Source: Amphiura filiformis
Lineage: Eukaryota
Assembly (NCBI RefSeq): GCF_039555335.1
Contig: NC_092646.1
Coordinates: forward strand, 36,987,911-37,051,910
DNA: 64,000 nucleotides
Reading direction: 5' to 3'
How positions within the stretch are numbered: position 1 is the first letter of the stretch; every line of letters starts with the position of its first letter. The translations under genes and the position numbers were made by a program. The notes under the pieces were generated by a model. It was not told where the DNA came from and searched no databases. It was given only the letters and a program-made list of their open reading frames with translations. Below, piece after piece: positions 19,872 to 58,545 of the stretch.

Positions 19872-19890
19872 GTGAGTAGCTATTACACTT

Positions 19891-20150
19891 AAAATCCACA
19901 CTCCCCCTTTGGAAGATTTTGGAAATATCTACCACAGGGGGAGTATGAATTTCAAATGGAATGAACATTTTAGGCAATTCCATTTGAATTTCATACACCC
20001 TCTAAGAAAGAGTCAACCTGTATCTTTCACAGAGGGAGGGTGAATTTCAAATAGATCTACTAATGTGTTCATTCCATTTGAAATTCATACTCCCCCTGTG
20101 GAAGATATTTCCAAAATCTTCCACAAGTGGAGTGTGGATTTTAAGTGGAA
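19891..20150. repeat. Hairpin-repeat family H, 3 units.
   Basis: Each unit has the form attccatttgaaattcatactccccctgtggaagat - loop (atttccaaa) - atcttccacagggg.agtgtg.atttcaaatggaat, giving a ~35-bp perfect stem. The locus starts 20 bp after the donor of exon 19790-19871. Confidence 0.85.
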
Positions 20151-20670
20151 AAGCATGTCTTCCCAAATTCCTTTGAAAGTTTTAAGAACAAAAAGGGTGA
20201 CATGCTTGAACCTTCAAAGACCCTTGTTGATTCAACTTTGCAAAAGATTCAGAAATAAAAAACCCTCCCAAATATCTTATTTGGAGTACACCGCTTGTGT
20301 GGGAGTTTTATAAAGTCACATCTTCCATTGGACATGCTTCACTAGCCTCACCTGAACCAGGGACTGTCTTTTGGAATTTGAAGGAGAGCATTAAATAGCT
20401 CTTCTGGAGCCTTCAAGGAGAGCTGTTTCGAGCATTTACAATAGAATGTAAGGGGAGAATGGTCAACTAAGGAGAGCTAAAAATCACTCACCTATGTCAG
20501 ATTTAAGGAGAGCAGTAGAGTAATGATTGCTATCGCTCTCCTCAAAAGGCAGTACCTGCTGAACACAGTCAATTCAGTTGTACAATTTTCCAAGAGACAT
20601 ACTCATATTCAACAAAATCTACTTATCATCATGATCATTGAGCACAATAAATTATAAACATGTTCAACAG

Positions 20671-20950
20671 GCTATTCCATTTCAAATTCACACTACCCCT
20701 GTGGGAGATTTAGTTTAAGTCTGCTACAGAGGGAGTATCAATTTTGAATAGAATAGGCAGTTCACAGTTGGGTAACTTCCATTTGAAATACTCACTCCAG
20801 TTGTGGAAGATATAAGTAAAACCATCATATGGGGGAGTAAGCATTTCAAAATAATTAACTCTGACCAATTACTTTTGTAAAACATACTCCCTCTGTGGAA
20901 GATATTTCCAAAATCTTTCACAGGGGTAGTATGGATGTCATATGGCATAG
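20671..20950. repeat. Family H, 3 units.
   Basis: Same ccctgtggaagat / atcttccacaggg core. Confidence 0.8.
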
Positions 20951-22039
20951 TGTATTGGACAGGCAGGTGCTGGGAAAATAGATGGACTTCCAGGTATTCA
21001 CTCAGCACTTTACAGAACTAATTTTAGCCAGAAACCTTTTGAAAAAATATTATTTTCAACACGACTGCTTGGATGTAAAACCAGCCACTAAAAGCAAAAT
21101 TGATAAAGACTAGTAACTTGTGATGCTATTTGGAATGGTGTTATCTGTGGCAAAATAAAATGAAATCCTCACAAAAAGAAAGTCCCCCACTTCCAGCAAA
21201 ATGTGTTAAATTATATATTAATTTGAGCCAAACTGAACCATTTTGAAAAAAAAAAAGGAATTCAAATTGTCTATGTATTATACATAGACCATTTTGAAAA
21301 AAAAAAAAATCAAATTGTCTATGTATTTTATATTTCTACATAGCTCAATCCTAATCGTTTATTTAGTACTAACTGGAGATAACAGAAAAAGTTCACTATT
21401 CGACTTAATTTCTTGAAAAAAGAGTCAAAAACATGCATTTTCAGCATGTTTTCTGACAACCGAGTTACAAATATCAAAGGCTTGGGACACTTTTTTGTGT
21501 TACTTTAATTAAATGATTGGTTATAAGAATGGAAGATGTCTTTTCCAAAAATTAGTGCCAAGTTTTTAGTTGTTGGACCAATTGAAGTACTACATTTCTG
21601 TAGAGTTCAACACAGTCTCAGACCTGCCAACTGTCCGCATTTTGCGGGACAGTCCCGCAAGATTCGAAGTTTAAAACCCGAAAATGCGGGCGCCCCGCAT
21701 TCCGCATTTCCGTCCATTGAAAAAAATCATTAAAAAAACCAACAAATTGTCCGATATCGTCTGGCACGAAAGAATTGCGGCGGCGCTATACCTATTTAAA
21801 TGCATTGAAAATGTGGTGGCGCTATTAAAAGCCTGATTAGCACGTGCTTGCGTGTTAAATTCACGTTGCCCATTGTAAATACATTGGATATGTATGAGCG
21901 TTGCCATTAAAAGGAGGCTATTATTTTAGCCTCATCGCTTGGTGCATGGTTCATTGATGCAACATTGTATAACCGATGAATTGCGTATCTTTTTCGGATT
22001 GGTGAAGAGGTTATTTTCAGCTTTTCACTGTGTCAATGT

Positions 22040-22130
22040 TTCCGAATTCGGAAGGTTCGTCGTAATTTCGTTGGAATTTTGGAAGAATTTCGTTGGAATT
22101 TTGGAAGAATTTCGTTGGAATTTAATTCAG
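22040..22130. repeat. 22-bp microsatellite-like tandem repeat x ~3.5.
   Basis: (gaatttcgttggaattttggaa)n. Confidence 0.85.
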
Positions 22131-22444
22131 AATGGCTACCAAAGCAAGCAATAAGAGAGGTTGCAGTTATACGAAAGACTATTCTGTGCAATTTCCGTGC
22201 ATGAATACCATTTCGTAACATGTTTACAAGTGCCAAAACCCATCAGCTTCCCCTGGACCCCCACCAGGGGCCCTAAGGCGGGCTCCTGGACCCCAACCGT
22301 TCGCCGTGCGTGCTTCGCACGCGCACATTGTCACTAAATTTTTAGTGTCCCGCATTTGGACTTTCAGGGGTTGGCAGGTCTGCAGTCTGTTTGTTTCTGA
22401 TCACCATTTTTTAAACATTCATATTGTATTGCTTTCCTCCACAG

Positions 22445-22529
22445 TTTTTAATGGACTACAATTTGTATGGCATGAACATGCTCAATGTAGCTGCTGTCAA
22501 GTTCAGGAAAACAGAAGAAGATAAACAAG
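22445..22529 (+). CDS. REV3L: REV3L-like exon: FLMDYNLYGMNMLNVAAVKFRKTEEDKQ
   Basis: Acceptor ttcctccacag| and donor CAAG|gtatat. Matches human LFIDYNLYGMNLINLAAVKFRKARRKSN. Ends in phase 1. Confidence 0.85.
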
Positions 22530-22537
22530 GTATATAA

Positions 22538-22755
22538 TTAACCCCATGAGAACTACCTGCTGATTGGTCAAAAAGAAGTTTTCATTATCAATTGGACCAA
22601 TCAGCAGCAACATTGTTAAAATAATTTCACCACACAAAATAATTGGGGTGAATTATTTTCAAAGCTCCATTCTGATTGGTGATTAAAATGAAGATATCAT
22701 GTTATTGACCAATCAGAGGCAATGTTAGATCGGCAGGTAGTGCACAGGGTGTTAA
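22538..22755 (+). mobile_element. Same MITE family, full length, flanked by TTAA on both sides.
   Basis: ttaaccccatgagaactacctgctgattgg ... gatcggcaggtagtgcacagggtgttaa. It starts 9 bp after the donor of exon 22445-22529. Confidence 0.85.
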
Positions 22756-24662
22756 ACACAGATTTATCTGGTTTGTAGATATTTAATTATAATTTGGAAT
22801 TTTCATCTTTCAAAACCAAAATATTGACACTGACCACAGTTTTGTACGTCTTGGACGACACACTTCTTCAGAGTAATTATTGGTATCCCATCCTCAATGC
22901 TGGTGGTAACAGCTCCATCCTGAGAGTGCATGGGTTTTGAGGGTGCAGCACCAAAGGGGCTCCAAAAATATAATCTACTTATTCCACAGGAATATTTGTA
23001 TTATAAAAGGAATTTCAATATTTTGTAGCTTCCAAATTCTCTTTCAGATATGTAAATTTTAATATTTTTGTGTGTGTGGAAGTTAAATGTTTATGATAAG
23101 AGTAATAGTAACTAGGAAAAAGCAATAGACCTTTTCATACTAAGTAATCCCGATAAAACCCGAAGCATGAAATAATTTCCTCAATCGCGCGCGCATAAAC
23201 GTACCTCTTCAGCATCATGTACAGTGCAAAGGTCCAATGTGTAACAGGCATCATAAACTACGACGAACTTTCGACGGTCAATCTATGGAAGAGGGAGGTA
23301 CTTTTGCCAAGGATACTCAACGTGCAATCAAGCGTGTGGGGGTAGTGTTGTGTAAGAGACTGACTGTGGAAGAGGTGATACACATAAGCAAAACGTTCTG
23401 TAAAAAAATTAACTGACGAAAATGACGGAGATTTGTCCATTTCTTTCCATTAGTATCTTATTGTGAAAAACCAAGTACCTGAGGTGTTAGCTCAATATGC
23501 TAGGAAAATATATCTATATTTCCCCATGTTCACATTGGCTTAATAAGCTGTATTTTCGCACAAAAGGGTGTCGTAATTCATGACATTTCTTGTCCGCCAG
23601 TTTGGGTACAATTTGACCCCCTAGCTTACTGAATAAATAGCGCGGTTTTCCGAACTTTTCCGATCTTGATTTGAAAAGTCTTTGGCATATTGGCTAAATA
23701 ATAATGAGCATATGATTGGAATTTCATTTTTAACCACAAATAGCTGCATTAAAACATGGAGAAAATAATATTAATGAAAAGAAGTGAATGAGAATGGACT
23801 GGACATAAAAGTAATTAAACCAAACATATTCTACTAAAACCAATTACATAAATTGACATTTTATACCAATAAATAGCAGTGGCAATGAAGCGTATATCTT
23901 TTCTGGTGTTTTTCTGTTGAACATCATTCACAGCATATTATAAAAATTAGAATTGCATAATGAAATTCATGCTGAATTGTTTTAAACAATTCAGCTTAAA
24001 AGCCATATGTAATGTACATCTGTTTAAAAATAAAATTGTTTTAAACCTGATGTTTTGGCATATTTGAAATGTTTACACATGTCCGCACTTTACACGTAAT
24101 TGAAATATACCAAATTCATTGGGTTTGTAGTACGCAGGTCATTAACATCATCATGATTTTGTGGAGCTTACATACTTTTTGATTCCTTGTCCATTCTCAT
24201 TGTGTAATATGTTTGTTTAGAACTGTGCCCATTGGAATGATTTTAAAATTGCGACCTGATTGACAAGTGTCACCAAACCATCAGTCGAAAGTGTGACAGT
24301 ATAAAAATTAGGGAATTAAAAGAGGATATATCATAGCTACCAGGGATCGTTATTTTGCTGAGCGATGCTCGCATTTATGCAATGAAATACAAGCTTATAA
24401 TCTTGGTGAAATATGCATGTAATTTGGTCTAGGTAATTTTTCCAAGTTGTAAGTGTTAATTTATGTATAAAAATACCCTCTAAATGTGCCCAAAACCAGG
24501 AGCTTCGACTAGAATCCCCTGCACCCCCACCAGGGTCCCCGGCCTTTGTATGGATTGTCTCCGAGTAGCTTCCAGATTTTTTAGAAATCCTCAATCACAC
24601 CCCTGTGTAAATAACCATAAAGCAATTCAAAGTCTCAATTTTTTTTCCATGTCCACATGTAG

Positions 24663-24798
24663 AATCATCAGAACCCCTGTCAGGAAGTAGCAAGCATTCT
24701 GGGAGTAGTGATGATACATTGAACCAATCCACCCAAGGCAGTGGGTCATCGAGGTCAAGCGTAAACAGGCATGTGTGGACCAAAGACACCATACCCAG
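24663..24798 (+). CDS. REV3L: REV3L-like exon: ESSEPLSGSSKHSGSSDDTLNQSTQGSGSSRSSVNRHVWTKDTIP-
   Basis: Acceptor ccacatgtag| and donor CCCAG|gtaaga. Phase 1 in and phase 2 out are consistent. Weak similarity to human ...LFRWEQDEIPS. Confidence 0.7.
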
Positions 24799-24830
24799 GT
24801 AAGAGCTTCAACCTCTTTACTGTAACGGGA

Positions 24831-25235
24831 CTATTCCAGTTGAAATCCTGACACCCATAGGAAGACATGACCTTAATCTCCCACACAGGGGGTGTAGATT
24901 GAAATTCACACAAGCTGTATGGGAGATTAAAGGCATTTCTTGCATAGGGGTTGTATTGATTTCAAGTGGAATCTCTTTGAAGGAACTAAAGTAAATTCTA
25001 AAAACTTGGTCAGTGATGTAATGAAACACTTGCCCGATGGCCCCAATGGCTCACCACCCAGTTCAAATCCATACACCCTCTAAGGAATACAAGACCTTAA
25101 TATTCCAAGTAGGGGAGTGTAGATTTCAAACGGAGTCACCCATTCTGGTAACCCAATTTGAAATTCACACTCCCTCTGTGGAAGATAAAAGCCATGTCTT
25201 CCATAGGGGGTGTAAAGATTTCAACTGGAATAGCA
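24831..25235. repeat. Family H, ~5 units, of the atgaccttaat-loop subtype.
   Basis: Starts 33 bp after the donor of exon 24663-24798. The ORFs 25037..25420 (+) and 24817..25029 (-) are artefacts. Confidence 0.8.
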
Positions 25236-26076
25236 TCAAGTGTGTAAAATTACAGGTTAATCCGGACAGAGGTGTAGGGCTGTTACTCAGAAACTCCTAT
25301 CCATGTTTAGGGGCTGATTTGACAGTTCGGGACCCATGTTTAGGGATTTTCTTTACCCAAAAAACGGCCGAGTTGACAGTTTTTGACCATTTTTTATCAA
25401 ATTTGGACCCATATATATAGGTATTTATCTTCTCAAATCTGGACCCATGTTTAGAGTTTTCTTCAAAAAAGTAACCCTCTAGAGCGAGCGGCACATCCCT
25501 GTATACCTTACTTACATGAGTACCCCACCCCCGGTTAATATGCCCAACAATAGGGTGATTGTCATTTTGAAGCCTACCATTAAAAAAATCAAAGAAGAGG
25601 TGAAAGAAAGATTTATGAAAGCAGTATCCTGAATTCCCCATATGCTTCTCCAGTTGAATAAAAATCAGCCAAGATGATCAGGTGTCCCACATCTACTAGT
25701 ACCAGTGCAATCATTTCCTGTGAAATTTACATTATCTTTTTGTAAATTTTGCATTTTCTTTCATTCCAATATACCACTGGATACCAGTTTTGTCATAATT
25801 TAAAGACCATAGGCTGAATAAACCAAGATGATCAGGTGTCCCATATCGACTAGTACCAGTGCAATAATTTCCTGTGAAATTTATACATTATCTTTACGAA
25901 AATTTGCATTTTCATTCATTTCAATATATACCACCGGATACCAGTTTTGTCATAATTTAAAAGACCATCGGTTGAATTACTAAATAATTGGATATGTTAG
26001 TGTTAGTCATTTTTAATTTTGTTATTTTTCTGAGTATTTTCATTTGCAGTTTCAAACAGCTGCACACACACATCGG

Positions 26077-26257
26077 GCTATTCCAGTTGGAATCCATACA
26101 CCCCCTATTGAAGACATGACCTTAATCCGCCACATAGGGAGTGTGAATTTTAGATAGGGTTACCTGAATGGGTGACTCCATTTGAAATCTACACCCCCTG
26201 TGTTGGAGATTACAGTCATGTCTTCCATAGGGGGCGTGTGGGTTTCAACTGGAATAG
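26077..26257. repeat. Family H, 2 units forming a larger palindrome.
   Basis: gctattccagttggaatcc ... ggtttcaactggaatagtc. Confidence 0.8.
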
Positions 26258-26339
26258 TCCATATATCTTATGAGGCAATCATTTTTGCAGGCTTCCACAT
26301 CCTGAAATTAACTGTTAAAGGTCTTTAAAATAAATAAAT

Positions 26340-26645
26340 GTTGTTTGATTTAACGTGCGCTTCAGCTAGGCATGACCTAATTATCAGCACACTTCAACAA
26401 TCTGCCATTAGGATATATCAGAATCATTTCCGCTTCACCAAGTCCGCAACTGATGCGCAGGTACTCTCAGCGACTTAGATTGTGATTACTCCCAGCAGCT
26501 CCCCATTTTACACCTGGGTGGAGTGAAGCAATTGGGAATTAAGCTTAAGGGTGCAACACACTGGCTGTGGTGGGGCTCGAACCCGCAACCTTTCGATTAT
26601 GAAGCTCGTGCCCTAACCATTGGGCCACCGTGCTGACACAATCAA
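26340..26645 (-). mobile_element. tRNA-derived SINE, or a tRNA pseudogene plus tail.
   Basis: Minus-strand 26535-26610 reads GGTGGCCCAATGGTTAGGGCACGAGCTTCATAATCGAAAGGTTGCGGGTTCGAGCCCCACCA. It has a D-arm, a GTTCGAGCC T-loop and a CCA end, but imperfect stems. The body continues to an A/T-rich tail near 26340. Confidence 0.55.
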
Positions 26646-27859
26646 CAGACTCGTACCCCATTTTTCTTCATCAAAACTGAAATTTTGGTATTAAAATAAA
26701 GCTTATTAACCCAGAAAATTTAATGCCCAAGATATTTGTCTACATGGTGTTAAGAAAAATGTGGTAAAGTGTGGTAACCACGCCGGAAGTATGTACTATC
26801 CTATGGGGCATTGTTATACACGTTTTTGCTTTTCATATCAAAACCGCTGGAGCAATACAACTCCAAATTGAGAGTTTTTAATGGTATGCTTCACACACAA
26901 GATAGAACACAGAGCATGAAAAATTGGGCCATGCCCTTTAAAAACGTGCAACTAAAACATTCACTAATTCAGAAAGTATGCATTATGAGAATTTTCAACT
27001 GTTAAAGGTCTTTAACCCGATCAACAGTCTCATACCCAACTTAATGTATTGCACCAGCTAATTTTCACAGTAAGACCAACTGATGGTATGTCATATTGGT
27101 TGAATATAGATTTACTAAAAATAACTCTCAAATTAATATTTGTGTCCTTTTTTTGTCAATATTGTGGTGGGTCACCTTTTTCAACAATAGAAACAGCAAC
27201 TACATTCAGAGTGAAGTACTCTTATAATTTTGTGTGGTTACAAGGCTTGGACCAACAAAAAAAAGAAAAGAAATATAAATAAATCAACATCCAGTACCAA
27301 CTTTGATTTGTCATCATTAGTGCCCCCTCTAATTAGCCCCCCCCCCCCATTATAATGTACACATTGTAAGCACCCCCTGTTAGCATGCAAGTGGGTAAAA
27401 AGTGTTATCAAATCACTGGTACCGGTGATTTAAACCATCTGGCCTGTGTTTTTATGCCTGTGACATATGCGTCCAGTTTTTATTTCTATTATTGTGAATT
27501 ACAACACTGCTTTGCATAGAAATGGCCATTGTGACTTTTCAGAATATACATATATATACTATAGAAGTAGTTATTTTCACATGCAGAAGTTTTTTTGCAA
27601 TTTCTAACAAAGGGGAGCTTTATGCATGATCATATTTTTATGCCATAACAATGTTATTATATATATGACAATTTAAGTTAATGTTCGAGTGTTGATTAAA
27701 TTTGTGGCCTCGCCTCTACTGGTTAAATTTGTGAAAAATAACCCCCTTGAAAATTACCACTTGTACTTGTACCTGTAGTACATTTAGAACAAGTATCCAT
27801 ATGAAATGGCTTTATAAATGCCTAGTGTGCAAAATTCCAAATGCCTGGTGTGCAAAATT

Positions 27860-28350
27860 AGGTTTAAAGCCATACTGTATGATTTCCGGCAAATTTTAGT
27901 TTTGTTATGCTGAAATAATATTAGTAATTAACAACCAGGAAGGTTTTCTTTCCATTTAAAGCTTAAAAAAAGGAAAGTGAAAGAAACCACACTGGCTACA
28001 GTTTGTCCACTCTGAAGTACAAAGTGACAACGCGAGCGTATACAGCGCGTAAACAGTGCACGGTGCTGCGTCTCTGCTGCAGATATGCGTGCCTTCAAAG
28101 TCGGCACAATGTGTGCGTCCGCGTCGGTACTTTGTACTTCAGAGTAGACTGACTGTATTTTGGTCATTTAACATGGAGCTCTATGGTGGACTTTATATCA
28201 AAATTGCTCTGTTGACCTACAAACACAACAAATTTTGCTGATTCCATTTAGGTGTAAGTTGGGACATCATTGTGTAAACATTACAAATATGCTAAAAAAA
28301 TCAGGTTTGAAAAAACAAAATTCATATTAAAGATCGTACATTATGGCTTT
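27860..28350 (+). mobile_element. Family X copy 2, carrying an extra internal ~150-bp hairpin (27985-28145).
   Basis: Same blocks as copy 1. The insert ctctgaagtacaaagtgacaacgcg ... cgcgtcggtactttgtacttcagag forms a stem. Confidence 0.7.
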
Positions 28351-28668
28351 AATTATGGTAAGTACTAGCAGGAGACAATGAAAGATCAGATTCATTGTCA
28401 AAGTAGTGCATAGCAGAATTATAATTTGTAGAAGATGCTGCAAGATGAGGAACACCTTGAGGAAAGCATGTGAAAAAAACACTGAAATTGAGCTTAAATT
28501 GAAAATTGTATGTGTGTTTCTTGCATTTTTGTTGGTAAAGAATATCTCTACAGTGCCTGATAAAAATAATGTCATTAAGCAGTAGATCAAAGTCATTTGA
28601 AACCATAGTGATCCAGGCCAAGTTTATTATTATGCTGGATAATTTGACATGCACTTGCTCTGGCAATG

Positions 28669-28852
28669 CGCTATTCCAATTAAAATCCTTACACCCTACG
28701 GAAGGAAGACATCGCCTTAATCTCCCACACAGGGGGTGGATTTGAAATGAAGTCACCCTTCATGTAACAACATTTAAAATCTACAACCCCTGTGTGTGGA
28801 AGATTAAGGTCATATCTTCCATAGGGGTGGATGGACTTCATCTGGAATAGCC
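28669..28852. repeat. Family H, 2 units.
   Basis: Same structure. The ORF 28349..28756 (-) is an artefact. Confidence 0.8.
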
Positions 28853-29009
28853 TAATACCCTGATCTTTTTTAGTAAAAATAATGTCGCATGAAAGACGGA
28901 AACCACTCAGCCTTGTAGTATATAAGAAATCGTTAGATCCTATTTTCTTTTAATATTTGCTGTAGATATCGTCTCTGACTTCTGATTTAAGGAATCAGAT
29001 AGTAAGGTT

Positions 29010-29600
29010 TGCACCGTATTTTTTGTGGGATCTGAGAGCAAATCAGACATATCGAATTACATTCTGAATACAAGGAATGTCCTGATATTAAATAATTTTT
29101 GATTTTTTGAAATTCGCGATACAATACAAATTTTATGGTAAATTAATCAAATTTGATATTTTTGATATTTAACAGTCCTCGAAGTAAACATTATAAATCT
29201 AATGATATGTACTTAAAGTGTATGTTGCTGGGATGAAAAGCTGACCATCAATTGAAAATTTTGACCTTTCATATTGAAGATATACATTTTTTTCCCCAAA
29301 AGACCTCAATTATTTTGGTGGATTTGGAAAAAATGTTATATCTTCGATACGAAAGGTCAAAATTTTCATAAGATGGATGGTTTTTCATCCCAGGTCCATA
29401 TACTTTAAGTACATATCATTAGATTTATACAATTACTTTGAGGACTATTAAATTAAAAATATCAATTTTAATCATTGCCATAAAATGTAATATATCATAA
29501 ATTTGACAAAATCTAAATTATTTGATATCAGAAGGACATTTCCTTGTTTTCAAAATACAATTTGATATGTCTGATGTGCTCTCAGCTCCCACACACACAA
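29010..29600. mobile_element. FB-family perfect palindrome of ~590 bp.
   Basis: The left arm 29010-29300 is the reverse complement of the right arm 29310-29600, centred at ~29305. Confidence 0.85.
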
Positions 29601-30404
29601 AAAAACAAAAACAATGTGAACACATGACTTTCTTGTGTGTCTTTTTGACCCGACGGACATGTGACAGACGCCTGTTGTTTTTGTTGTTCAGACTGGTTGT
29701 TGCTTGTGTGTCTTTTTCAATACCTTTAAAAATGACATCTACACCCCCTCTATACCCCTCTGCAAGATCTTTCTTGTGTGCCTAGACACACAAGAAAAAA
29801 TTGACATACAAGCTAGTTTTGTACTAAAAAAAAGACACACAAGCAAAGCCTTGTGAGAACATCACTACCCAAGCCCTTAAAAGGATAATACAGGCTGTAT
29901 CAAAATGATTGGTACCCATTGGTTTTGGTGTTTATTGAAAAGCCAGCTTTTTTCAAAGGCGACATTGGAGTGACCAGAAATTATATTTCATAACCTTTAA
30001 TCACTAAAATGTATTCATAACCTCATTAATATACGCAGCAAGTGCGATCCAATCACAGATAATAACTTTTAAATATGCGGACGCAAATGCAGGTCATTGA
30101 AAAAGTATAATGACCGCGTCTCATCGGAAGAAAAACGTGGAGGGAAAGAGTGTAGATCTCGGGGGACGCCGTGCCATTGAACAAAATAAGCGGACGCTGG
30201 CCGCCGTATTTGGACATCGCATGATTGCGTGCTAGTGTGATTGGTCGCTAGCGGTATTTCCGTAATGGGCTATTCGATTTTTTACAGGAAAAACGACAGA
30301 TAGGTTAAAATTTTGTTCAGTTTTCAAATTAAAAGAAGAAAATGTGATGTAAATTGATTTAAAAAATGAAAAGTGACAGTTATGAATGAGGTTTTATGAC
30401 TTTG

Positions 30405-30545
30405 CATCAGTTATTTTTCGGGTATTGTGAAATACCTAAACATTTTGCTTGGACCTCGGAATATCCCTCAGGGATGCGCCCCTCGGGATATTCCTCGGTG
30501 CCAAAGCACAATGTTTAGATATTTCACAATACCCGAAAAACAACC
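30405..30545. repeat. ~140-bp hairpin-forming inverted repeat.
   Basis: gttatttttcgggtattgtgaaatacctaaacatt ... aatgtttagatatttcacaatacccgaaaaacaac. Confidence 0.7.
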
Positions 30546-30730
30546 GATGCGCCGTCATTAACCTCTAAACAAGTATTGGTGGATCTTATGTTGCACTTTG
30601 CTGATGAGGCAGTCTAGTCCATAATCTGAAAACTGATGGATATCAATCATTTTGATAGCTTATTAGCATATCTCTTTTAAAGCATACTATTTTTTCTGGT
30701 GGGTCTTTAGCTGGCTAATGGGCTGTTTAA

Positions 30731-30980
30731 TATAAAATCCACACTACCCCTGTGGAAGATTTTAGAAATCTTTTGGGTGAGCATGAATTTCAAATAGAAT
30801 GAGCACATTTGCAGCTCTATTTGAAACTGGCCCTCCCTCAGTGGAAGATTCAGATTGAATCTTTCTCAGAGAGTGTATAAACTGCCTAATGTGTTCATTG
30901 TATTTGAAATTCATACTCCCCCTGCGGAAGATATTTCCAAAATCTCCCACAGGGGTAGTGTGTATTTTAAATTGAATAGC
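30731..30980. repeat. Family H, 3 units.
   Basis: Same structure. Confidence 0.8.
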
Positions 30981-31289
30981 ACAATATTCATGGATTCAAG
31001 ATTTTTTTCTATTGAGATGTACTCTCTGGAAAATACCTGATGATACCAACTTCCCATCACATCATTCATGCACAGCTGCACGGGCAATTTATAGCAATTT
31101 CCGACATGTGTCCCTGTAATAGGTTTTCAGCTATCTGTGTTTCTATTGATAGTATTTATTGATGTAATCCAATTTTTTTCCCATTCTGATGAACATGTTA
31201 TCTACTGATGATAGTATTTACTTCATACAAGATATATAACATGAATTTATACAAAGCATTTCATTAACAGGGGTAGTAGAAATATTTGT

Positions 31290-33720
31290 GTTAAAATAGG
31301 TGTACTACATAGCATTATCTACTGATAGTATTGAATAGTAAGTCCTGAAATATGTGCGATGAAGTGGGTTACAATTTATCTACTGGAGGTAGCATTGAAA
31401 ACTTCAGTGGAATGTGTGTAATAAATTGGACATGCTATGTACTGAAGATAACACTGAAAACTTAAATGGAATATGTGTGATGAAATGTATTACACAAACT
31501 TTAAATAGACATGCTACAAAAACAATGTATCTACTGAAGATAGCATTGAAAACTTGATTGGAATATGTGTAATAAAACAACAAAGATACTATCTAGTATC
31601 TACTGAAGATATAGCATTGAAAACTTGACTTAAATATGTGTGATGAAATGTATTACACAATTTAAAAAAAAAGGCATGCTAGAAAAACAATGTATCTACT
31701 GAAGATAGCATTGAAAACTTGACTTGAATATGTGTGGTGAAATGTATTGAATGCAAACTTTAAAATAGACATGCTATCTACTGAAGATAGCACTGAAAAC
31801 TTGACTTGAATGTGTGTGGTGAAATGTATAAATGCAAACTTTAAAATAGACATGCTATCTACTGAAGATAGCATTAAAAACTTGACTTGAATATATGTGA
31901 TGAAATGTATTACACACATTTTAAAATAGACATGCTATCTACTGAAGATAGCACTGAAAACTTAACTTGAATATATGTGATGAAATGTATTACACAAATT
32001 TTAAAATAGACATGCTATCTACTGAAGATAGCACTGAAAGATTGACTTGAATGTGTGACAAATTATATTAAATGCAACTTAAAAATGGACATGCTATCTT
32101 CTGAAGATAGCATTAAACACTTGCCTGGAATGTGTGTAATAAAATGGACATGCTATCTACTGAATATAGCATTGAAAACTTGACTTGAATATGTGTGGTG
32201 AAATGTATTACACAAACTTTAAAATAGACATGCTATCTACTGAAGATAGCACTGAAAACCTGACTTGAATCAACATTGTGACGAATTGTATTAAATGCAA
32301 ATTTAAAATGGACATGTTATCTTCTGAAGATAGCATTGAACATTTGACTGGAATGTGTGTAATAAAATGGACATGCTATCTACTGAAGATAACACTGAAA
32401 ACTTAACTTGAATATGTGTTATAAAATGTACATGCTATCTACTGAAGATATAGCATTGAAAACTTGATTTATGTATATTTGGTGAAATGTATTACACAAA
32501 CTTTAAAATAGACATGTTATCTACTGAAGATAGCACTGAAACATTGACTTGAATGTGTGACAAATTGTATTAAATGCAACTTTAAAATGGACATGTTATC
32601 TTCTGAAGATAGCATTAAACACTTGACTGGAATGTGTGTAGTAAAATGGACATGCTATCTAAGAAGAAAGCACTGAAAACTTGACTTGAATATGTGTGGT
32701 GAAATTTATCACACAAACTTTAAAATGAACATGTTATCTACTGAAGATAGCACTGAAACATTGACCGAAACATGTGAAAGGAAAATGGATGTATGCTATC
32801 TACTAAAGGAAGCACTGAATTCTTGAAATATATTATGCCAACTTCAAAATAGATATGCTATCTACTGAAGATAGCACTGAAAACTGGAATATGTGTGATA
32901 AATTGGACATGCTATCTTCTGAAGATACCACTGAAACCTTGACATGAATATGTGCAGTTAGATGTATTACACCAACTTTAAATTGGACATGCTGTCTACT
33001 GAAGATAGCACTGAATGCTTGAATGAAACGTGTGTAATGAAATGGATATATGCTATCTACTGAAAATAGGAATTCTTGACATGAATATGTGTGATGAAAA
33101 TTATCACACAAACTTTAAAATGAACATGTTATCTACTGAAGATAGCATTGAATGCATGACTGAAACATGTGTAATGAAAATGGATGTATGCTATCTACTG
33201 AATTAAGGAAGCATTGAATTTTTGAAATATATTACACCAACTTCAAAATGGATATGCTATCTACTGAAGATAGCACTGGATGCTTGACTTGAAAGATGTA
33301 TGATGAAATGCTATCTACTGAAGATAGCACTGAAAACTTGACTGCTATCTTCTGAAAGATACCACTGAAACCTTGACATGAATATGTGCAGTTAGATGTA
33401 TTACACCAACTTTAAAATGGACATGCTATCTACTGAAGATAGAACTGAATGCTTGACTGAAATATGTGTAATAAAATAGTCACATTAGACATTCTATCTG
33501 CTGAAGGTAGCACTGATTCTTGACTTACAGATTCATGATGAAATGCTATCTACTGAAGATACTAAAATTTTAACTGGAATATGTGTAATAAATTGGATGT
33601 GCTGTCTACTGATGATAGCACTGAAAACCTTGGCTTGAATATATGTTTGATGAAATATATTACACAAACTTTTGCTATCTACTGAAGGTAGCAAGCAGTC
33701 AAAACTTGACCTGACACTCA
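31290..33720. repeat. Satellite array, ~82-bp unit x ~30.
   Basis: The unit is gacatgctatctactgaagatagcactgaaaacttgacttgaatatgtgtgatgaaatgtattacacaaactttaaaata. The core gctatctactgaagatagc is itself a near-palindrome. The ORFs 31662..31919, 32833..33111 and 33533..33721 are artefacts. Confidence 0.9.
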
Positions 33721-34184
33721 TCTCCAGTTTTGAACCAGAGCTCCCCCCACTTGACTTTCTTCACATAAACTTTGATGAAAATATTATGTGTTTTCTCACA
33801 ATTTAAGATCAAAACTACCCAAGAAAGCTCTATATCATGCATAAAACATCAACATTTTCACAGAGATGCCAATTTTCCAAATAAATTTGGAATTTTTTGC
33901 AATTTTTACAAAAAAAGTCTGATAAAAAAATGCACATTTCGCTTAAAACAATATTGCCGTCCATTTCTAATTGTCACCCCCATAGGCTTTACATGTAAAA
34001 TAAAAAGGCTCGTAAAAATTTAATAGCCTCTAGTAAGGATGTAAAATTCACACCAAATGCTTTTTGAGTGATTACAAAGATAATTAAATACTTTTCATTC
34101 GGGGGCTATGTGGAATTTTTTTTTATGTATTCCTTGTACAATGACATTTCACAATAAAATGTCCATTGGAAACAAAGGTGTGAA

Positions 34185-34900
34185 GGAAGCACTGAATTCT
34201 TGAAATATATTACACCAACTTCAAAATGGATATGCTATCTACTGAAGATAGCACTGGATGCTTGACTTGAAAGATGTATGATGAAATGCTATCTACTGAA
34301 GATAGCACTGAAAACTTGACTGCTATCTTCTGAAAGATACCACTGAAACCTTGACATGAATATGTGCAGTTAGATGTATTACACCAACTTTAAAATGGAC
34401 ATGCTATCTACTGAAGATAGAACTGAATGCTTGACTGAAATATGTGTAATAAAATAGTCACATTAGACATTCTATCTGCTGAAGGTAGCACTGATTCTTG
34501 ACTTACAGATTCATGATGAAATGCTATCTACTGAAGATACTAAAATTTTAACTGGAATATGTGTAATAAATTGGATGTGCTGTCTACTGATGATAGCACT
34601 GAAAACCTTGGCTTGAATATATGTTTGATGAAATATAATACACAAACTTTTGCTATCTACTGAAGGTAGCAAGCAGTCAAAACTTGACCTGACACTCATC
34701 TCCAGTTTTGAACCAGAGCTCCGGCAGCTCCCCCATTTGACTTTCTTCACATAAACTTTGATGAAAATATTATGTGTTTTCTCACAATTTAAGATCAAAA
34801 CTACCCAAGAAAGCTTTATATCATGCATAAAACATCAACATTTTCACAGAGATGCCAATTTCCCAAATTAATTTGGAATTTTTTGCAATTTTTACAAAAA
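34185..34900. repeat. ~715-bp segmental duplicate of 33195-33910, covering the satellite's 3' edge and its unique flank.
   Basis: The two blocks are near-identical (~99%) and separated by ~275 bp of unique sequence. The ORF 34511..34828 (-) duplicates ORF 33533..33721. Confidence 0.85.
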
Positions 34901-34985
34901 CATTTTACAAAATTCAGTGCCTAAATTCAGCGTATTGATACCCTAATTTAATGGTTTATAACATTGTTATTTTTGTGTTTTTCAG

Positions 34986-35083
34986 GTCTCAATGGTTGGA
35001 TGAGGATGTAACAAGACAAAGTACCTGTGACTTAGAGGCAGATGCCGTCGCTGTCGATATATTAAATAGATTGGAAATAGAAG
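34986..35083 (+). CDS. REV3L: REV3L-like exon: (R)SQWLDEDVTRQSTCDLEADAVAVDILNRLEIE-
   Basis: Acceptor tgtttttcag| and donor GAAG|gtgagc. Matches human PQSTCELDVDAVAADILNRLDIEAQ. Confidence 0.82.
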
Positions 35084-37640: not shown

Positions 37641-37787
37641 TCTCTGGCATTATTTTATCAGCTTTTGTAGTTTGTTATGCTTCAGGAAATATCCAGATAT
37701 CTAAAAATAACATTTTTATATCTAATGTATTCATTTTATTATAATCTAACCATGGATGTTCAGTGGAGGATGGTGAGGACATGGTGC

Positions 37788-42190: not shown

Positions 42191-42393
42191 GCTATTCCAG
42201 TTGACATCTATACACCCCCTATGAAATTAAAGGACATGATCTTAGTCTCACAGTCACACACAAGGGATGTAGATTTCAAATGATTAAGTCGCCCATTCAG
42301 ATTACGGTAACCCCATTTGAAATTCACACTCCCTGTGTGGAGGATTAACATCATGTCTTCCATGGTGTGTGTATGGATTTCAACTGGAATAGC
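42191..42393. repeat. Family H, 2 units.
   Basis: Same structure. Confidence 0.8.
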
Positions 42394-43239
42394 TAATTGC
42401 AAAAGTTACCTGGTGTAGGTTTTGTTATTGATTGCTAAGATTGACCCGACTTAGAAAATGGCATATTTGTGTGACCCTTAAGGGTATCCGTAGGGAGAAC
42501 ACTAAGTGATACGGCCAGGTCTGGCCAGGTGCATGTTTGTTCGCAGTCTACAGGTGTAACTAGGTTGTTGTATATTCTATAATTTTCCTGGCGTGTTAAC
42601 TGTGATTACATCTAGACACCAGTTTATTTTTTATTTGAACGGGACCCTAATTTAATGAGAAAAACGCCGAAAAAGAGAGGCCCGGCAAAAGCCGATTTGC
42701 AGACAATTTTGTAGCTACAGACAGCTCGTATTCCATATAACAACTACGGAAACCAATCAGTGCCAGAAGTGTTGATTTATATTTCATCCACTTAGGTTTG
42801 GCTTAACCCACTAAAAGGTAAAACTTTAAGGCTGATCATTTTAATTATAAATGTAGTGTGTGTGTAAAAGTATATTTCTCAAAATGGAGGAGCGCGCCTA
42901 TGACTATTGTCCGTTCTGTCTACATGGTCTATGATAATTGTTTTCTTACCGAAATATATTCACTTAACACAGACCACGGTTGCCAAACAAATGAGGGCAA
43001 ACCGCATGGTCAAATCATTGAAAAGTCGCCCAATATTTTTTTTATCAACCGTTGGTTTCTATGAGATAAAAAACTACCAGAAGTCGCGTAAGCCAATGTT
43101 GCGAAGTCATGCAATATTTTTCTTAACCATCAATTGGTGTCTATAGGACAGGAAATTGTCGCGAGGAAAATCTTCAAAACTCATCCTATTGACCTAGGCC
43201 TATTACATCGCGGGTTTGGCAACCCTGCAATCGCACCGC

Positions 43240-45110: not shown

Positions 45111-45142
45111 GTAATATGGAATAAGCGTTTTGAGCGTTTCGA

Positions 45143-45771
45143 CAGTATTTTTTGTGGGAAATGAGAGCACATCAGACATATCGAATTGCATTCTGAATAC
45201 GAAGAATGTCTTTCTCATATCAAATAATTTTCATTTTTTGAAATTCACGATATAATGCAAATTTTATGACAAATTATTAAAATTTGATATTTTTCACATT
45301 TTCGATATATAACAGTCCTCGAAGTAAATTTTATAAATCTAATGACATATTCTTAAAGTGTATGTAGCTGGGAGGAAAAGCCGACGATCAATTGAAAATT
45401 TTGACCTTTCATATTGAAGATATGGATTTTATTTCCCAAAAAGACCTATTTTGGGGGGGAGGGGGGGAAATCCATATCTTCAATACGAAAGGTCAAAATT
45501 GTCAATTGATCGTCGGCCTTTCCTCCCAGCTACATATACTTAAAGAATGTATCATTAAATTTATAAAATTTACTTCGAGGACTGTTATATATCAAAAATA
45601 TCAATTTTTAATGATTTGTCATAAAATGTGTATTACATTGCAATTTCAAAAAATCAAAATTATTTGATATCAGGACATTCTTAGTATTCAGAATGCAATT
45701 CGATATGTCTGATGTGCTCTAATGTCCCACAATAAATACTGTCCAAACGTTCACACCCCAGCCCTTAACAT
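45143..45771. mobile_element. FB-family perfect palindrome of ~630 bp.
   Basis: Centre at ~45462 (ttttggggggg|agggggggaaa). The right end is ...cgttcacaccccagcccttaac. Confidence 0.85.
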
Positions 45772-45802
45772 AAAACAAAATAAAAGCGGTCATGATAATA
45801 CG

Positions 45803-50823: not shown

Positions 50824-51037
50824 TTAACCCCATGAGAACTACCTGCCTATTGGTCAAAAAGGAGTTTTCATTATCAATTGGACCAATCAGCAACATTGTT
50901 AGAATAATTTCACCATGCAAAAATGGGGGTGATCGAATTATTTGCAAAACTTCATTCTGATTGATTAAAATGAAGATATCATGTAATTGACTAATCAGAG
51001 GCAATGTTAGATTGGCAGGTAGTGCTCAAGGGGTTAA
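50824..51037 (+). mobile_element. Same MITE family, full length, flanked by TTAA on both sides.
   Basis: ttaaccccatgagaactacctgcctattgg ... gattggcaggtagtgctcaaggggttaa. Confidence 0.85.
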
Positions 51038-51103
51038 CAATATATTCACTAGCAGACTATGGTAATTATAGTCTAATGGGAACCTGCAGACATGGTTGTT
51101 AGG

Positions 51104-51740
51104 TTAAGGGCTGGGGTATGAACGTTTGGACAGTATTTATTTTGGGACATTAGAGCACATCAGACATATCGAATTGCATTCTGAATATGAAGAATGTCAT
51201 TCTGATATCAAATAATTTTGATTTTTGAAATTCGCAATTTAATACACATTTTATGGCAAATCATTAAAATTGATATTTTTGATATTTAACAGTACTTGAA
51301 GTAAACTTTATAAATCGGATGATTTATACTTAAAATGTATGTAGGTGGGATGAAAAGCCGACGGTCAATTGAAAATTTTGACCTTTCATATTGAAGATAT
51401 GGATTTTTTCCCCCAAAACACCAAAAAAATTAGGTCTTTTGGGAAAAAATCCATATCTTCAATATGAAAGGTCAAAATTTTCAATTGACCGTCGGCTTTT
51501 CCTCCCTGCTACATACACTTTTAGAACATATCATTAGATTTATATAATTTACTTCGAGGACTGTTATATATCAAAAATTTGAAAAATATCAAATTTTTAT
51601 AATTTGTCATAAAATTTGTATTATATTGTGATTTAAAAAAATGAAAATTATTTGATATCAGAAAGACATGCTTCAGTATTCAGAATGCAATTCGATAGGT
51701 CTGAGGTGCTCTCATGTCCCACAAAAATACTGTATTAAAC
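51104..51740. mobile_element. FB-family perfect palindrome of ~640 bp with a TTAA terminus.
   Basis: The left end ttaagggctggggtatgaacgtttggacagtattt is the reverse complement of the 45740-45771 right end. Centre at ~51425. Confidence 0.85.
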
Positions 51741-52516
51741 GCATAATAACGCTTCATTTTGGATCCCTTAAGCGGTCAAAACCATTTTGTCCACAAAGCG
51801 GTTAAAACCAGGTTCAACAGAAGTTGATATTATGGACCAATGGGCACTTACAGAAGGATATGCTTTATAAAAAAGAAGGATTTACGGGGGAGGGTTCTTC
51901 AAAATATTTTTGTATGGGGATGTGCCACACAGACTTGTGGATGCTGACTTTCTCTACTTAAAAATATACTTTTTGCTGTTTTCACACAAAAAAAACACAA
52001 AAAAAACAAAATTTGTCATAATTGGGAACTTTTAAGCCCCTTTTTCCCAAATGTGCCCGCATTGGGCGCAATGGTCTCCACTGAAAACGCACCCATCGAT
52101 ATAGCCCAAAACGGTGACACATACCCCAAAATGGTTGCACATACCTGTATACCTTCAAACATTGAGACAGCCTCCCCCCATCCTGGATTTACTTTTGCTC
52201 ATTGATAAAATTTTGGTTCAGTTATGGGACAGACCAAAAGATTGATAATATCCTACATGTAGAAATAAAACTTGGATTCACTTGGGAAGAGAGGTCAAAA
52301 AGTGATCATGTTTGTTAAAAGGATTAAACATAGATACAGAAAATGATGAATTGGCAACAATTCACAATTATGTTTCAAGCAGGGAGGGAGGGTGTGAGCC
52401 TTCTAAAAAACCTAGATTTGTTCTAGGACGTCATCGATCTTTTGGTTTGTTCCCTAAAGGCGGTCGTGCTAAATATATCATGGCTCTTACCCGTTTCTTA
52501 TTTTTCACCTTAACAG

Positions 52517-56224: not shown

Positions 56225-56262
56225 GTGTAATGGATGCCTTGGAGTCACTACACATGTCACAG

Positions 56263-56375
56263 GCCTGGGACGATGAGACACCAAAGAATGAGATGGAAGA
56301 TGGAGATGATGATGACGAGGAGGAGGTGGAGGATGAAGGGGGAGAGGAAGGAGATTTGTATAATACCCCAAATAG
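56263..56375 (+). CDS. REV3L: REV3L-like exon part 2: AWDDETPKNEMEDGDDDDEEEVEDEGGEEGDLYNTPN-
   Basis: Acidic open frame that ends at the classic donor AATAG|gtaagg. It joins in frame to part 1 only through a 38-nt excision. The alternative is a frameshift in the assembly. Confidence 0.55.
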
Positions 56376-57564
56376 GTAAGGTGATATTGAAGAGGTTAGA
56401 CTACTCCCTATTCCATAAAAATACAGCACTTTTTTGAGACTAAAAAGATATTATCCTGTTTTGCCAAATGAAACATAACTAAATCCCAATCCTTTAGCTA
56501 GTTCTAACTGGCAATTACAGTCAAATTTGAATATTTTTCCAATTTGAGGGAAAATGGACAAAATTGTGCAATTTTGCATGTTTTCTTACAAATGTAGTCC
56601 CAAATTCTAAGACTTGGCACAAATCTAAGCATTCAAAATCTTGAGCATAGGCCAATAATTAGCTAAAAATTTAAATATTTTGTGTTATTTTTGATAATTG
56701 GTTATGAAAAAGATTAGAAAATATGCTTTCCAAAATTTAGAATGAATTAGTCTTTGTACAAGTTTTTTGTTTTGATTGTCACAACATACGAAAAAAAAAC
56801 CTAAAACACATGTTGAGCAATTTAAAATTATTTGTGCTCAATTGTCGTCAGTCTTCCTTGTCTAACTGGGACATCATTACCACAGGCAATTTCTGTGCTT
56901 GGGAAATTTGAATAACATGTGGTGAGAGACGGCTGTGGTTATTTGTTTTTAAGGTCAATATGAGTTTGTTGTAATAAAACCATGTGATTTGTGCTTGATA
57001 AGTCATAATGTTGTGATTGCTTGAGACTCCCTTTAATAGTTAAGAGAGTATGACATGAACACAAATTATCACTGCATATTAAAAACGCAAACTTTGTTTG
57101 TAAGTCAACCATGAATGATCCTAGCATTTAGCTTTAAGTCCAGGGACACGTCAAAAAAAAATACTTTGGAGGAGGATTTTTTTGTTCAATAGAAAGCTAA
57201 ACATAAAGGATGTGTGTACTTAGTGTGTGATGTTGGTGATGTATTTTACATTGTAAAACCCTATAAAAAGATGTCAAATAGCTTGTTTTGGGCACTGTTT
57301 AATGGCTTAAACCCAGGAGCTTGGGGCAGTGCCCCTGGACCAGAGGCCCTAAGCTGAGCCCTTGGACCCCTGCTGCTAAATCGCCCCCCTAAACTCGCTT
57401 CGCTCTATTGGACTCAGTTTCCTAGGTTTTTAATGTTGGAAGGTATGCCACACTTACAAAACAAAATAACACATAATTATGCTCATCAACTGTATTAATT
57501 TTAATGTGAATGGAGCATTGCTATTATTAGATGAACAAATCTCTGACATTATGATTTCTTACAG

Positions 57565-57677
57565 TACTCTAGAAGAACTTGAAGATGCCTTGATATCAAT
57601 CACCAATGCTGATGAAGCACAGAAGTCTGCTTTACCTCAGTATGATGGACCTGGTGATGAAGAAGAAGAACCAGCAG
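57565..57677 (+). CDS. REV3L: REV3L-like exon: STLEELEDALISITNADEAQKSALPQYDGPGDEEEEPA-
   Basis: Acceptor tgatttcttacag| and donor GCAG|gtaggg. The same frame appears in the supplied ORF 57479..57730. Phase consistent. Confidence 0.7.
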
Positions 57678-57939
57678 GTAGGGTTCAAACTTCAAGCCAT
57701 AATGATTTTGATCCAAACACAAGGAATTAATTCCTACCTAGGAATTTTCAGATGATACTCCATCTTTCATCAGCAAGTGAGTGACTGTATCAGGTTGTGA
57801 ACTTTTTGACCTTTGACCTGATAACAGACCTGATAACAGACCTGATAACAGACCAATTAATTAATTCCTTGTGTTTGGATCAAAAGTTTAAATCAAAATC
57901 ATGTTTATACCAACACAGAAGAACTTTCATGAACGTTAA

Positions 57940-58300
57940 GTCCACAATCTTATGATATGAAATTTGTTAATTTTGTTCAAACCTGATTTTGGCATATTTG
58001 TAATGTTTATGCATGTCTCATCTTGAACCTAAATGGAATCAGCCAAATTTGCTGTGTTTGTAGGTTAACAGGGCAATTTCGACATACATGTAAAGTCATA
58101 TTATAACTTTAAGTCCCCCCATAGAACTTCATATTAAGCGGCCAAAATAACCAGTGGGGTTTCTTTCCCTTTACCTTGTTATTTCAGCATAATATGGACA
58201 AAAACCCTTCCTGTCAGTTATTCCTAATACATGTATTATTTCAGCATTTTGGTAATAATAACAAAATTGGAAGGAAATCGTACATTACAGAGTTCAGCTG
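57940..58300 (-). mobile_element. Family X copy 3, reverse orientation.
   Basis: ggtttctttccctttaccttgttatttcagc is the reverse complement of the gtgaaagaaacc block. Partial relatives occur at 9120-9220 and 24040-24100. Confidence 0.65.
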
Positions 58301-58426
58301 AATTGATTTCAATTTTCTGGATACACATACATCATTGTAATCTTTAATCTTTTGGGAGAATTTGTCAGATGAGTATTTTAGATAAACAAATTTTCCAATT
58401 GTAAGGGACAGTCATATTATTTAGGT

Positions 58427-58545
58427 ATTCCAGATGAAATCCATACACCCCCCATGTGCATTTCAAACAGAGTTACCTCAATGGATGAATCCATTTGAAA
58501 TTGACACCCCCGGATATATATATGGATATCAACTGGAAGAGCCCA
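58427..58545. repeat. Family H, degenerate ~1.5 units.
   Basis: ccatacaccccccatgtgc...ccatttgaaattgacaccccc. Confidence 0.6.

Follow-up and report, generated by a model that had tools for sequence, protein, structure and literature searches.

Hairpin repeats in the REV3L introns of the brittle star Amphiura filiformis: probable remnants of a foldback-type MITE

A DNA-repair gene whose introns are studded with conspicuous hairpin-forming repeats raises the question whether these hairpins are RNA genes, as the original prediction proposed, or whether they are debris of a more commonplace kind. We met this question in a stretch of 64,000 nucleotides of Amphiura filiformis DNA (hereafter, the window), which is occupied entirely by the orthologue of REV3L. 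Most probably the repeats are what remains of a non-autonomous DNA transposon of the cut-and-paste type, namely dead copies of a foldback-type MITE, and the family belongs to an ordinary, already known sort of genomic parasite.

Host gene and anatomy of the repeats

Collinear REV3L exons run across the whole window, as seen by tblastn and by comparison with the PDB Pol zeta. The human REV3L query in tblastn served as a lead only; the identity of the gene is confirmed independently by the comparison with PDB Pol zeta and by a match of 100% to an A. filiformis protein. As predicted, the repeats occupy ten loci in introns of a single gene (11 elements, 24828-24977 and 25048-25236 being two elements at one locus; Table 1). 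Every locus is intronic within REV3L, which is trivial, because the exons of this gene extend across the entire window. The element at 19877-20156 begins 6 nt past the GTGAGT donor of the REV3L exon ending at 19871.

The repeat family itself is real. An nhmmer profile recovered 27 full and 2 degenerate hairpin units of about 72-93 bp each, with matches confined to 19880-58512 and none in the region 1-19.8 kb, and the motif CATTTGAAAT....AC.CCCCCTG occurs 29 times, against 0.03 occurrences expected in the window at up to 3 mismatches. Grouped into elements, these units span 19877-58544 and amount to about 2.6 kb.

Table 1 Repeat elements in the window (positions are those of the window)
Element	Positions	Strand	Remarks
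B, 3 units	19877-20156		units 19879-19963, 19972-20056, 20069-20157
B, 3 units	20669-20953		nearest copy 38423-38701 (84% identity)
A, 2 units, centre deleted	24828-24977		inner arms truncated and fused
A, 2 units	25048-25236	-	central spacer oriented TCACCCATTC; AAT before left end
A, 2 units	26075-26260	+	whole-element foldback stem ~88 bp; dG -117.7 kcal/mol, z -14.6
A, 2 units	28668-28853	-	flanks AAT / AAT
B, 3 units, centre unit partly deleted	30720-30982		flanks AAT / AAT
A, 5 units	37784-38270	+	four direct left-unit copies (period 93, 37889-38167) and inverted right unit
B, 3 units	38423-38701		flanks AGT / AAT
A, 2 units	42189-42395	-	small insertions in left unit
A, degenerate, internally deleted	58422-58544	+	both termini recognisable; flanks ATT / ATT

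The building block of the family is a terminal module of about 40 bp (GGGCTATTCCAKTTGAAATCCAYACNCCCCCTGTGGAAGA), which is followed by a short loop and then by its own inverted copy to give a palindromic unit of about 85 bp; two or three such units, adjoining with just 2-5 nt between them, form a composite element, whose outermost modules are its terminal inverted repeats (TIRs). All elements share fixed ends, GGGCTATTCCAKTTGAAATCC ... GGATTTCAMCTGGAATAGCCC, at which similarity stops in every copy. The larger palindromes noticed earlier, gctattccagttg...caactggaatagc, were correctly observed and represent this terminal inverted repeat, and the two loop subtypes also described are markers of two subfamilies of uniform build, A (about 185 bp) comprising 2 units and B (about 270 bp) 3 units. 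One copy of subfamily A has grown to 5 units with a period of 93, and this is the only locus with a true head-to-tail tandem array; the number of units per array, described earlier as 2-6, is 2-5. The claim of a perfect stem of ~35 bp per unit is incorrect: the local stems are 72-86% complementary, Watson-Crick pairs are present at only about 62% of stem positions on average, and the near-perfect 36-mer pair quoted in its favour (19927-19962 / 20071-20106) brings together arms from two different units, the first and the third, of the same element.

In size and content the elements agree with the generic description of MITEs, which are under ~800 bp and non-coding: they are 123-487 bp long, their open frames are repeat-derived only, the boundaries of their TIRs are sharp and common to all copies, and the copies are dispersed (11 in the window and 18 loci in two other assemblies).

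Independent insertions and their target sites

Copies of the family are 16-35% diverged from each other and may have an age of between some tens of millions and about 100 million years. Arms within one copy are 63-85% identical, as compared to 65-84% between copies, and this equivalence argues for neutral decay; homogenisation of the arms by gene conversion was rejected, since arm identity is no higher than the identity between copies. Among the B elements, the copy at 20669 is closest to that at 38423, and 19877 to 30720. Adjacent copies are thus not mutually closest, which speaks for insertions instead of local duplications, and the flanks of different copies are unrelated, giving no alignment between loci.

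The family is also present in two other public assemblies, which derive from other organisms. In contigs of the ENA assembly ERZ25070167 the same 3-unit element can be aligned collinearly for ~280 bp, with an identity of 70-74%; these contigs share almost nothing more with the window, so they must stem from another species; a PIP5K exon is present in the same material. In the WGS project JAAUXV01, ten contigs have the same terminus, among them near-identical copies of a longer element, whose inverted ends match across at least 126 bp and which comprises a subterminal region with the repeated motifs AATTCCAGTTGA and CTGTGGAAGATTT, an (ATGA)n microsatellite and ~200-bp internal repeats. A local satellite or a segmental duplication instead of a mobile element could account for the packing of 10 of the 11 elements into 22.3 kb and for the one true period-93 array, and this packing (P about 0.006 for uniform placement) is a point against the MITE explanation. 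Such a local origin, to which we attach next to no credence, is nevertheless already contradicted by the flanks, by the relationships of neighbouring copies and by family members on unrelated contigs in two other assemblies.

The most informative feature of the insertions is the triplet A-N-T, which directly precedes 26 of 39 outer termini in a flank table covering three species (background 9.7%, p about 1e-17). ATT was counted 13 times, AAT 11 times, ACT and AGT once each, the middle base therefore being mostly A or T and occasionally C or G; inner unit starts are preceded by A-N-T in 7 of 12 cases. At a paralogous site, a single case at 79% identity, the element starts with GGGCT and the preceding AAT is host sequence. 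On account of this site and of the three-species table we favour a host origin of the A-N-T over an extension of the TIR. Three copies in the window are flanked by identical triplets (AAT/AAT, AAT/AAT, ATT/ATT), which is just 3 of about 10 complete copies and could also result from a target preference without duplication. By-eye inspection of all ends showed that neither a TA (Tc1/mariner) nor a TWA (PIF/Harbinger) duplication fits.

The A-N-T flanks would fit the ANT target duplication of Pangu-type transposons within the PHIS (PIF/Harbinger-ISL2EU-Spy) superfamily, a group defined by a 5'-ANT-3' TSD and by TIRs of 11-40 bp starting with GG or AG (Han et al. 2015, PMC4482050). Neither a transposase nor an autonomous copy turned up in the window or in the retrieved loci of the other assemblies, and the superfamily assignment, which therefore draws on termini and flanks only, is to be read as a putative one. 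An ISL2EU-type MITE, with a 2-bp AT duplication at A|AT|T, or a MITE of another PHIS group appears unlikely, even if in the young JAAUXV01 copies three 5' ends read AAT|GGGCT and one 3' end reads AGCCC|ATT, the exact ISL2EU pattern of PMC4482050, and GG at the TIR start is common to PHIS groups. An ISL2EU element predicts AAT at all ends when read towards the element; here, AAT does not stand before each terminus, as the triplet counts given above demonstrate, and the directly repeated triplets of the three window copies also disagree with such an origin.

Non-autonomous Helentron derivatives, i.e. HINE/DINE-1-like rolling-circle elements with stem-loops, internal tandem repeats and microsatellites, were considered as well, given the palindromes and internal repeats of our elements, the microsatellite and ~200-bp repeats of the longer JAAUXV01 relative, and the DINE-1-like elements known from sea urchin (PMC4067079). 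HINEs possess ~13-bp subterminal inverted repeats, a 3' palindrome and T-rich (TT) flanks, and leave the target unmodified (PMC4067079), a set of features our elements do not display: they terminate in long inverted repeats (from 40 up to at least 126 bp), are palindromic over their whole length and are flanked by A-N-T in place of T-rich sequence. A Helentron origin is therefore highly improbable. The MITE with ordinary TIRs and TSDs, which the original prediction had named as the finding that would speak against it, largely corresponds to what we observe, namely fixed TIRs, A-N-T flanks, unrelated flanking DNA and copies in other genomes.

Folding and the question of small RNAs

The units do not behave as independent perfect hairpins; instead, entire elements fold as one long foldback (dG -118 to -260 kcal/mol, z -15 to -23), the best preserved one being 19877-20156 with a dG of -172 kcal/mol, a z of -22.6 and an arm identity of 0.85. 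Single units fold at up to -45 kcal/mol. Upon transcription the elements would give long duplexes of high stability and therefore are physically plausible substrates of Dicer or ADAR. Small RNAs may be produced from them. One could go further and see in them selected hairpin-RNA genes (miRNA-like or endo-siRNA/hpRNA), which are processed from the REV3L pre-mRNA by Drosha/Dicer and silence genes or transposons. The stable folds would suit such genes, intronic palindromes are transcribed with the host gene and give the same fold in either orientation, and a precedent exists in the Made1 MITEs that gave rise to hsa-mir-548 (PMC1784062).

Rfam offers weak, generic miRNA-like matches only: no family reached its gathering score, the E-value search returned sub-threshold miRNA hairpins, and every match lies far under the cut-off (the best scores being 43 bits with a cut-off of 83 and 40 bits with a cut-off of 230). 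Compensatory evolution of the stems was absent in a partner-swap test based on the structure of the best units, an arm pairing with its own partner at 0.62 and with the arm of another unit at 0.65, and RNAalifold found no consensus structure in the alignment of the 27 units. The transcribed strand has no advantage in folding energy or G:U pairs, plus and minus folding equally well, and the arms decay as fast as the copies diverge. Furthermore, both arms carry the conserved segments symmetrically, and these segments are found again as subterminal repeats of the longer JAAUXV01 transposon, as expected for protein-binding sites and not for a mature miRNA. The repeats have so far given no indication of a selected RNA function, and we consider hairpin-RNA genes very unlikely; what stands of the proposed Dicer/RNAi precursors is the stable duplex upon transcription, not the selected function. 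A literature search on brittle-star small-RNA data gave nothing useful.

We may nevertheless speculate, as a distinctly unlikely possibility, that near-continuous intronic duplexes of 90-125 bp, formed on transcription together with REV3L, could yield hpRNA-like endo-siRNAs, silencing active relatives in trans or marking REV3L transcripts. Separately, and with equal reserve, the building of composites might be a general route from a MITE to satellite-like hairpin arrays, in which units enter the A-N-T next to a resident unit, after which the resulting multimer moves as one entity.

Proposed origin and comparison with known systems

Under the transposon explanation, a transposase encoded elsewhere would have recognised the terminal module and inserted the elements at A-N-T sites, which may be taken as a signature of the Pangu group. 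Composites probably were formed when a unit inserted into the A-N-T beside a resident one, and would next have been amplified as wholes, one copy expanding later through unequal exchange (period 93); at present, the copies would be in neutral decay within the REV3L introns. Nothing here is surprising for the transposon specialist. The practical value lies in annotation, the conspicuous hairpins in a DNA-repair gene being accounted for as transposon debris, and caution is warranted, as fold energy alone is insufficient for calling miRNA genes. The family is a clear example of a MITE body made solely of iterated terminal repeats, a structure from which short tandem arrays and long intronic dsRNA can arise, and the Pangu-type assignment, if true, brings a little-studied PHIS group to echinoderms.

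Foldback elements, such as FB of Drosophila and the TU and mini-foldback elements of sea urchin, have long inverted termini composed of repeated sub-motifs and snap back, and this type of element occurs in echinoderms. The present family likewise has long inverted termini of repeated sub-motifs and can snap back as a whole; FB and TU elements of the classical kind greatly exceed it in length and carry arrays of short repeats of 10-31 bp. Made1, by comparison, is a member of the mariner family. Its TIRs of about 37-40 bp and the short loop between them, about 80 bp in total, form a near-palindromic unit giving a stable hairpin upon transcription, as do ours (Piriyapongsa & Jordan 2007, PMC1784062). 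Made1 is a single unit, however, whereas composites of 2, 3 and 5 units form one long foldback here, and it is linked to hsa-mir-548, while no small RNA is known from the present units.

With Pangu the family shares A-N-T at its termini, a TIR start with GG (GGGCT in the window), a module of about 40 bp inside the range of 11-40 bp, which the longer JAAUXV01 relative exceeds, and its presence in AT-rich invertebrate DNA (PMC4482050). It differs in that no transposase or second ORF was seen here, the termini forming the link, and in that the TIR module is iterated into multi-hairpin foldbacks, which are not described in PMC4482050; the survey of Han et al. (2015, PMC4482050) contains no echinoderm report of Pangu. 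DTC84 and pearl of bivalves also are short non-autonomous elements with an interior of variable repeat-unit number, palindromes close to the unit junctions and an array length that varies inside the element, as at 37784-38270 (Satovic & Plohl 2013, PMC3879986). DTC84 has a separate flanking 'cassette' with short inverted repeats, a microsatellite and AA flanks (PMC3879986), whereas in the present family it is the TIR module itself that is repeated, in alternating orientation and between A-N-T flanks.

Units, elements and their folding

The core motif of the hairpin family occurs 29 times in the window (up to 3 mismatches) versus 0.03 times expected, and a unit-based profile recovers 27 full units plus 2 degenerate ones. 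They are confined to 19880-58512, and up to position 19.8 kb the profile search detected none, even with filters off. The units form 11 elements at 10 loci and occupy about 2.6 kb (4%) of the window, which bears out the repeat family of the original prediction. The two loop types described there are genuine as well, and in alignments including the flanks they distinguish subfamily A (2-unit elements) from subfamily B (3-unit elements), both bounded by the common sharp ends GGGCTATTCCAKTTGAAATCC ... GGATTTCAMCTGGAATAGCCC. A subfamily A element measures ~185 bp and consists of a left unit with the loop CATGACCTTAAT, a short asymmetric spacer and an inverted unit; the spacer, found in either orientation across copies, sets the orientation of the element. 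Subfamily B (~270 bp) has a palindromic unit in its centre, between an outer unit (loop TTTTGGAAAT) and its inverted counterpart (loop ATTTCCAAAA). Each element is a palindrome of palindromes, in which 4-6 copies of a ~40-bp module alternate in orientation. The sole true head-to-tail array (37889-38167, period 93, four direct left-unit copies) sits within an otherwise normal A element and is therefore a secondary expansion.

Instead of the perfect ~35-bp stem assumed for each ~80-bp unit, the local arms are 72-86% complementary; single-unit folding energies range from -11 to -45 kcal/mol and are weak for most units. The near-perfect 36-mer pair quoted in its favour (19927-19962 versus 20071-20106) combines arms from different units of a single element: the first is the right arm of unit 1, the second the left arm of unit 3. 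Folded as a whole, an element gives one long foldback, not a series of small hairpins, as calculated for the A element starting at 26075 (-117.7 kcal/mol, z -14.6), the B element starting at 19877 (-172 kcal/mol, z -22.6) and the 5-unit element (-259.6 kcal/mol, z -17.1).

The host gene and its repeats

Collinear plus-strand exons in the window align with the N-terminal part of DNA polymerase zeta (see table); the tblastn queries were the annotated A. filiformis protein and a human REV3L sequence, the latter serving as a lead only. A large open frame (59936-64000, +) is 100% identical to an A. filiformis NCBI 'uncharacterized protein', and the joined window peptides match the yeast Pol zeta catalytic subunit (E = 5e-19) better than Pol delta. 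Given exon matches across the window, its entire length is contained in the REV3L orthologue. The intronic location of all loci in a single gene is thus correct but uninformative, since that gene holds the whole window. Ten of the 11 elements fall inside 22.3 kb (19877-42395; P about 0.006 under uniform placement), which local hopping or a regional preference could explain.

Coordinates of REV3L exons and of hairpin elements with identical flanking triplets
Feature	Position	Strand	Method	Flanks
REV3L exon	2718-2906	+	tblastn	
REV3L exon	~15940-16020	+	tblastn	
REV3L exon	19768-19871	+	tblastn	
REV3L exon	22442-22510	+	tblastn	
REV3L exon	35002-35088	+	tblastn	
REV3L exon	40361-40486	+	tblastn	
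REV3L exon	56230-56373	+	tblastn	
REV3L exon	57563-57685	+	tblastn	
REV3L exon	59963 onward	+	tblastn	
Element, identical flanks	28668-28853			AAT/AAT
Element, identical flanks	30720-30982			AAT/AAT
Element, identical flanks	58422-58544			ATT/ATT

At 19872-19880, the element at 19877 starts 6 nt into its intron, immediately after GTGAGT, the donor of an exon with its last base at 19871; a 125-bp foldback is therefore placed beside a splice site. At 2806-3767 a 325-bp unit is present in triplicate, so that a REV3L exon has its final 33 codons and its GTAAGT donor in three copies; each copy of this exon end (QFANSLDLAIQVSLGRASSTTEHVFKVSLVTGM; 2808-2906, 3133-3231 and 3458-3556) keeps an open frame. 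Duplicated exons used alternatively, or an artefact of assembly or expansion, could account for them. The 325-bp unit includes a ~200-bp repeat recurring at 22538-22741 and 50824-51023. The large REV3L exon contains three in-frame copies of a 180-bp (60-codon) unit (62984-63523, 86-90% identity).

Further foldback families are also present in the window. A ~600-bp foldback element has three copies (29004-29593, 45120-45776 and 51095-51758; arms of 137-150 nt, 87-92% complementary), into one of which the top sub-threshold Rfam match, MIR7504 (29253-29368), falls. An inverted repeat just upstream of the 5-unit array (37362-37556) has 75-nt arms that are 99% complementary and separated by 45 nt; it resembles a young MITE or foldback of a different family. 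A tandem array at 31371-33377 (~2 kb; 59/80-bp units, palindromic core TGCTATCTACTGAAGATAGCA) is unrelated to the hairpin family and adjoins a ~710-bp direct duplication (33205-33914 and 34183-34900, 98% identity, about 1 kb apart).

Copies in other genomes and sequence decay

The flanks of different copies fail to align, and the nearest relatives are not neighbours: among the B elements, the one starting at 20669 pairs with that at 38423 (84%), and 19877 with 30720. The translated hairpin (peptide PFEIHTPPVED...FHRGSVDFKWNS), used as query, matched ORFs on contigs of the ENA assembly ERZ25070167, and the family was present in the eight loci examined from it. The 3-unit elements there are collinear with subfamily B over ~280 bp (70-74% identity); these contigs have almost no other sequence in common with the window and therefore derive from another organism. 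That organism also carries a second repeat of the window (12560-12716, 72-75% identity), whose copies at one locus, L002, form an inverted pair (6120-6275 and 6460-6613).

A pattern scan of metagenome contigs yielded ten contigs of the WGS project JAAUXV01, some with single units and one with two tandem units. Three of these are near-identical 5' ends of a longer element; they open with the same terminal module, after which come the reiterated motifs AATTCCAGTTGA and CTGTGGAAGATTT, internal repeats of ~200 bp and an (ATGA)n stretch. The corresponding 3' end lies, inverted, on a fourth contig and is 95-98% identical over 126 bp. Since this longer element shares the module, the hairpin arm is the terminus of a transposon family. 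The conserved sub-motifs behave like reiterated protein-binding sites.

On the question of a selected RNA function, Rfam returned no family at gathering thresholds, only generic miRNA matches below them. The fraction of stem positions at which a left arm pairs is 0.62 for its own right arm and 0.65 for that of another unit, with the same outcome inside each unit class, and this partner-swap test revealed no copy-specific compensation between arms. Neither folding energies nor G:U counts gave a consistent advantage to the transcribed strand, and the arms of one element are as alike (identity 0.63-0.85) as separate copies are (0.65-0.84). Taken together, these results indicate that the hairpin copies are under neutral decay. 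Pairwise differences among copies (16-35%), combined with the neutral rate of 1.885e-9 per bp and year used for the A. filiformis genome (PMC11310086), suggest as a rough estimate that the insertions took place tens of millions to some 100 million years ago. Repeats, among them many DNA transposons, make up 59% of this genome (PMC11310086). Small-RNA production by the long intronic duplexes, as originally proposed, would be physically plausible, with Made1/mir-548 as a precedent (PMC1784062).

Target site, array origin and superfamily

In a paralogue of a JAAUXV01 flank (a single case, 79% identity), similarity extends to ...GGTAAT and stops at GGGCT, so that the element starts there and AAT is host sequence. 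Such an A-N-T triplet precedes 26 of 39 outer termini versus 9.7% in the background (p about 1e-17, three data sets pooled), the middle base being mainly A or T, sometimes C or G. Identical triplets on both sides are found in three window copies (see table), a pattern that a preferred target motif could produce even if nothing was duplicated; most remaining copies differ by one base between their triplets, as expected at their age. Neither a TA nor a TWA duplication fits the flanks.

Adjacent units are separated by only 2-5 nt (2-3 nt between units 2 and 3 of the ERZ25070167 3-unit copies: GT, AGT, AGA), and A-N-T precedes 7 of 12 inner unit starts. This is the outcome expected if a unit inserted into the A-N-T flanking a resident unit, which would create an abutting multimer; the multimer might then move via its outermost modules, and such movement would explain dispersed families of both 2-unit and 3-unit architecture.

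HINE/Helentron elements are characterised by 13-bp subterminal repeats and T-rich flanks (PMC4067079), which the hairpin elements do not show. Within the PHIS (PIF/Harbinger-ISL2EU-Spy) superfamily, the hallmarks of the Pangu group are a target site duplication of 5'-ANT-3' and TIRs of 11-40 bp starting with GG or AG, and that of ISL2EU is AT at A|AT|T (PMC4482050). ISL2EU would demand AAT at every terminus, yet ATT is at least as frequent, and Pangu therefore fits better; as no transposase was found in the window or the loci examined, this assignment is the best-fitting rather than a proven one. The hairpin elements constitute a decayed family of foldback MITEs, most probably of the Pangu/PHIS kind, and their structure is genuine but ordinary.
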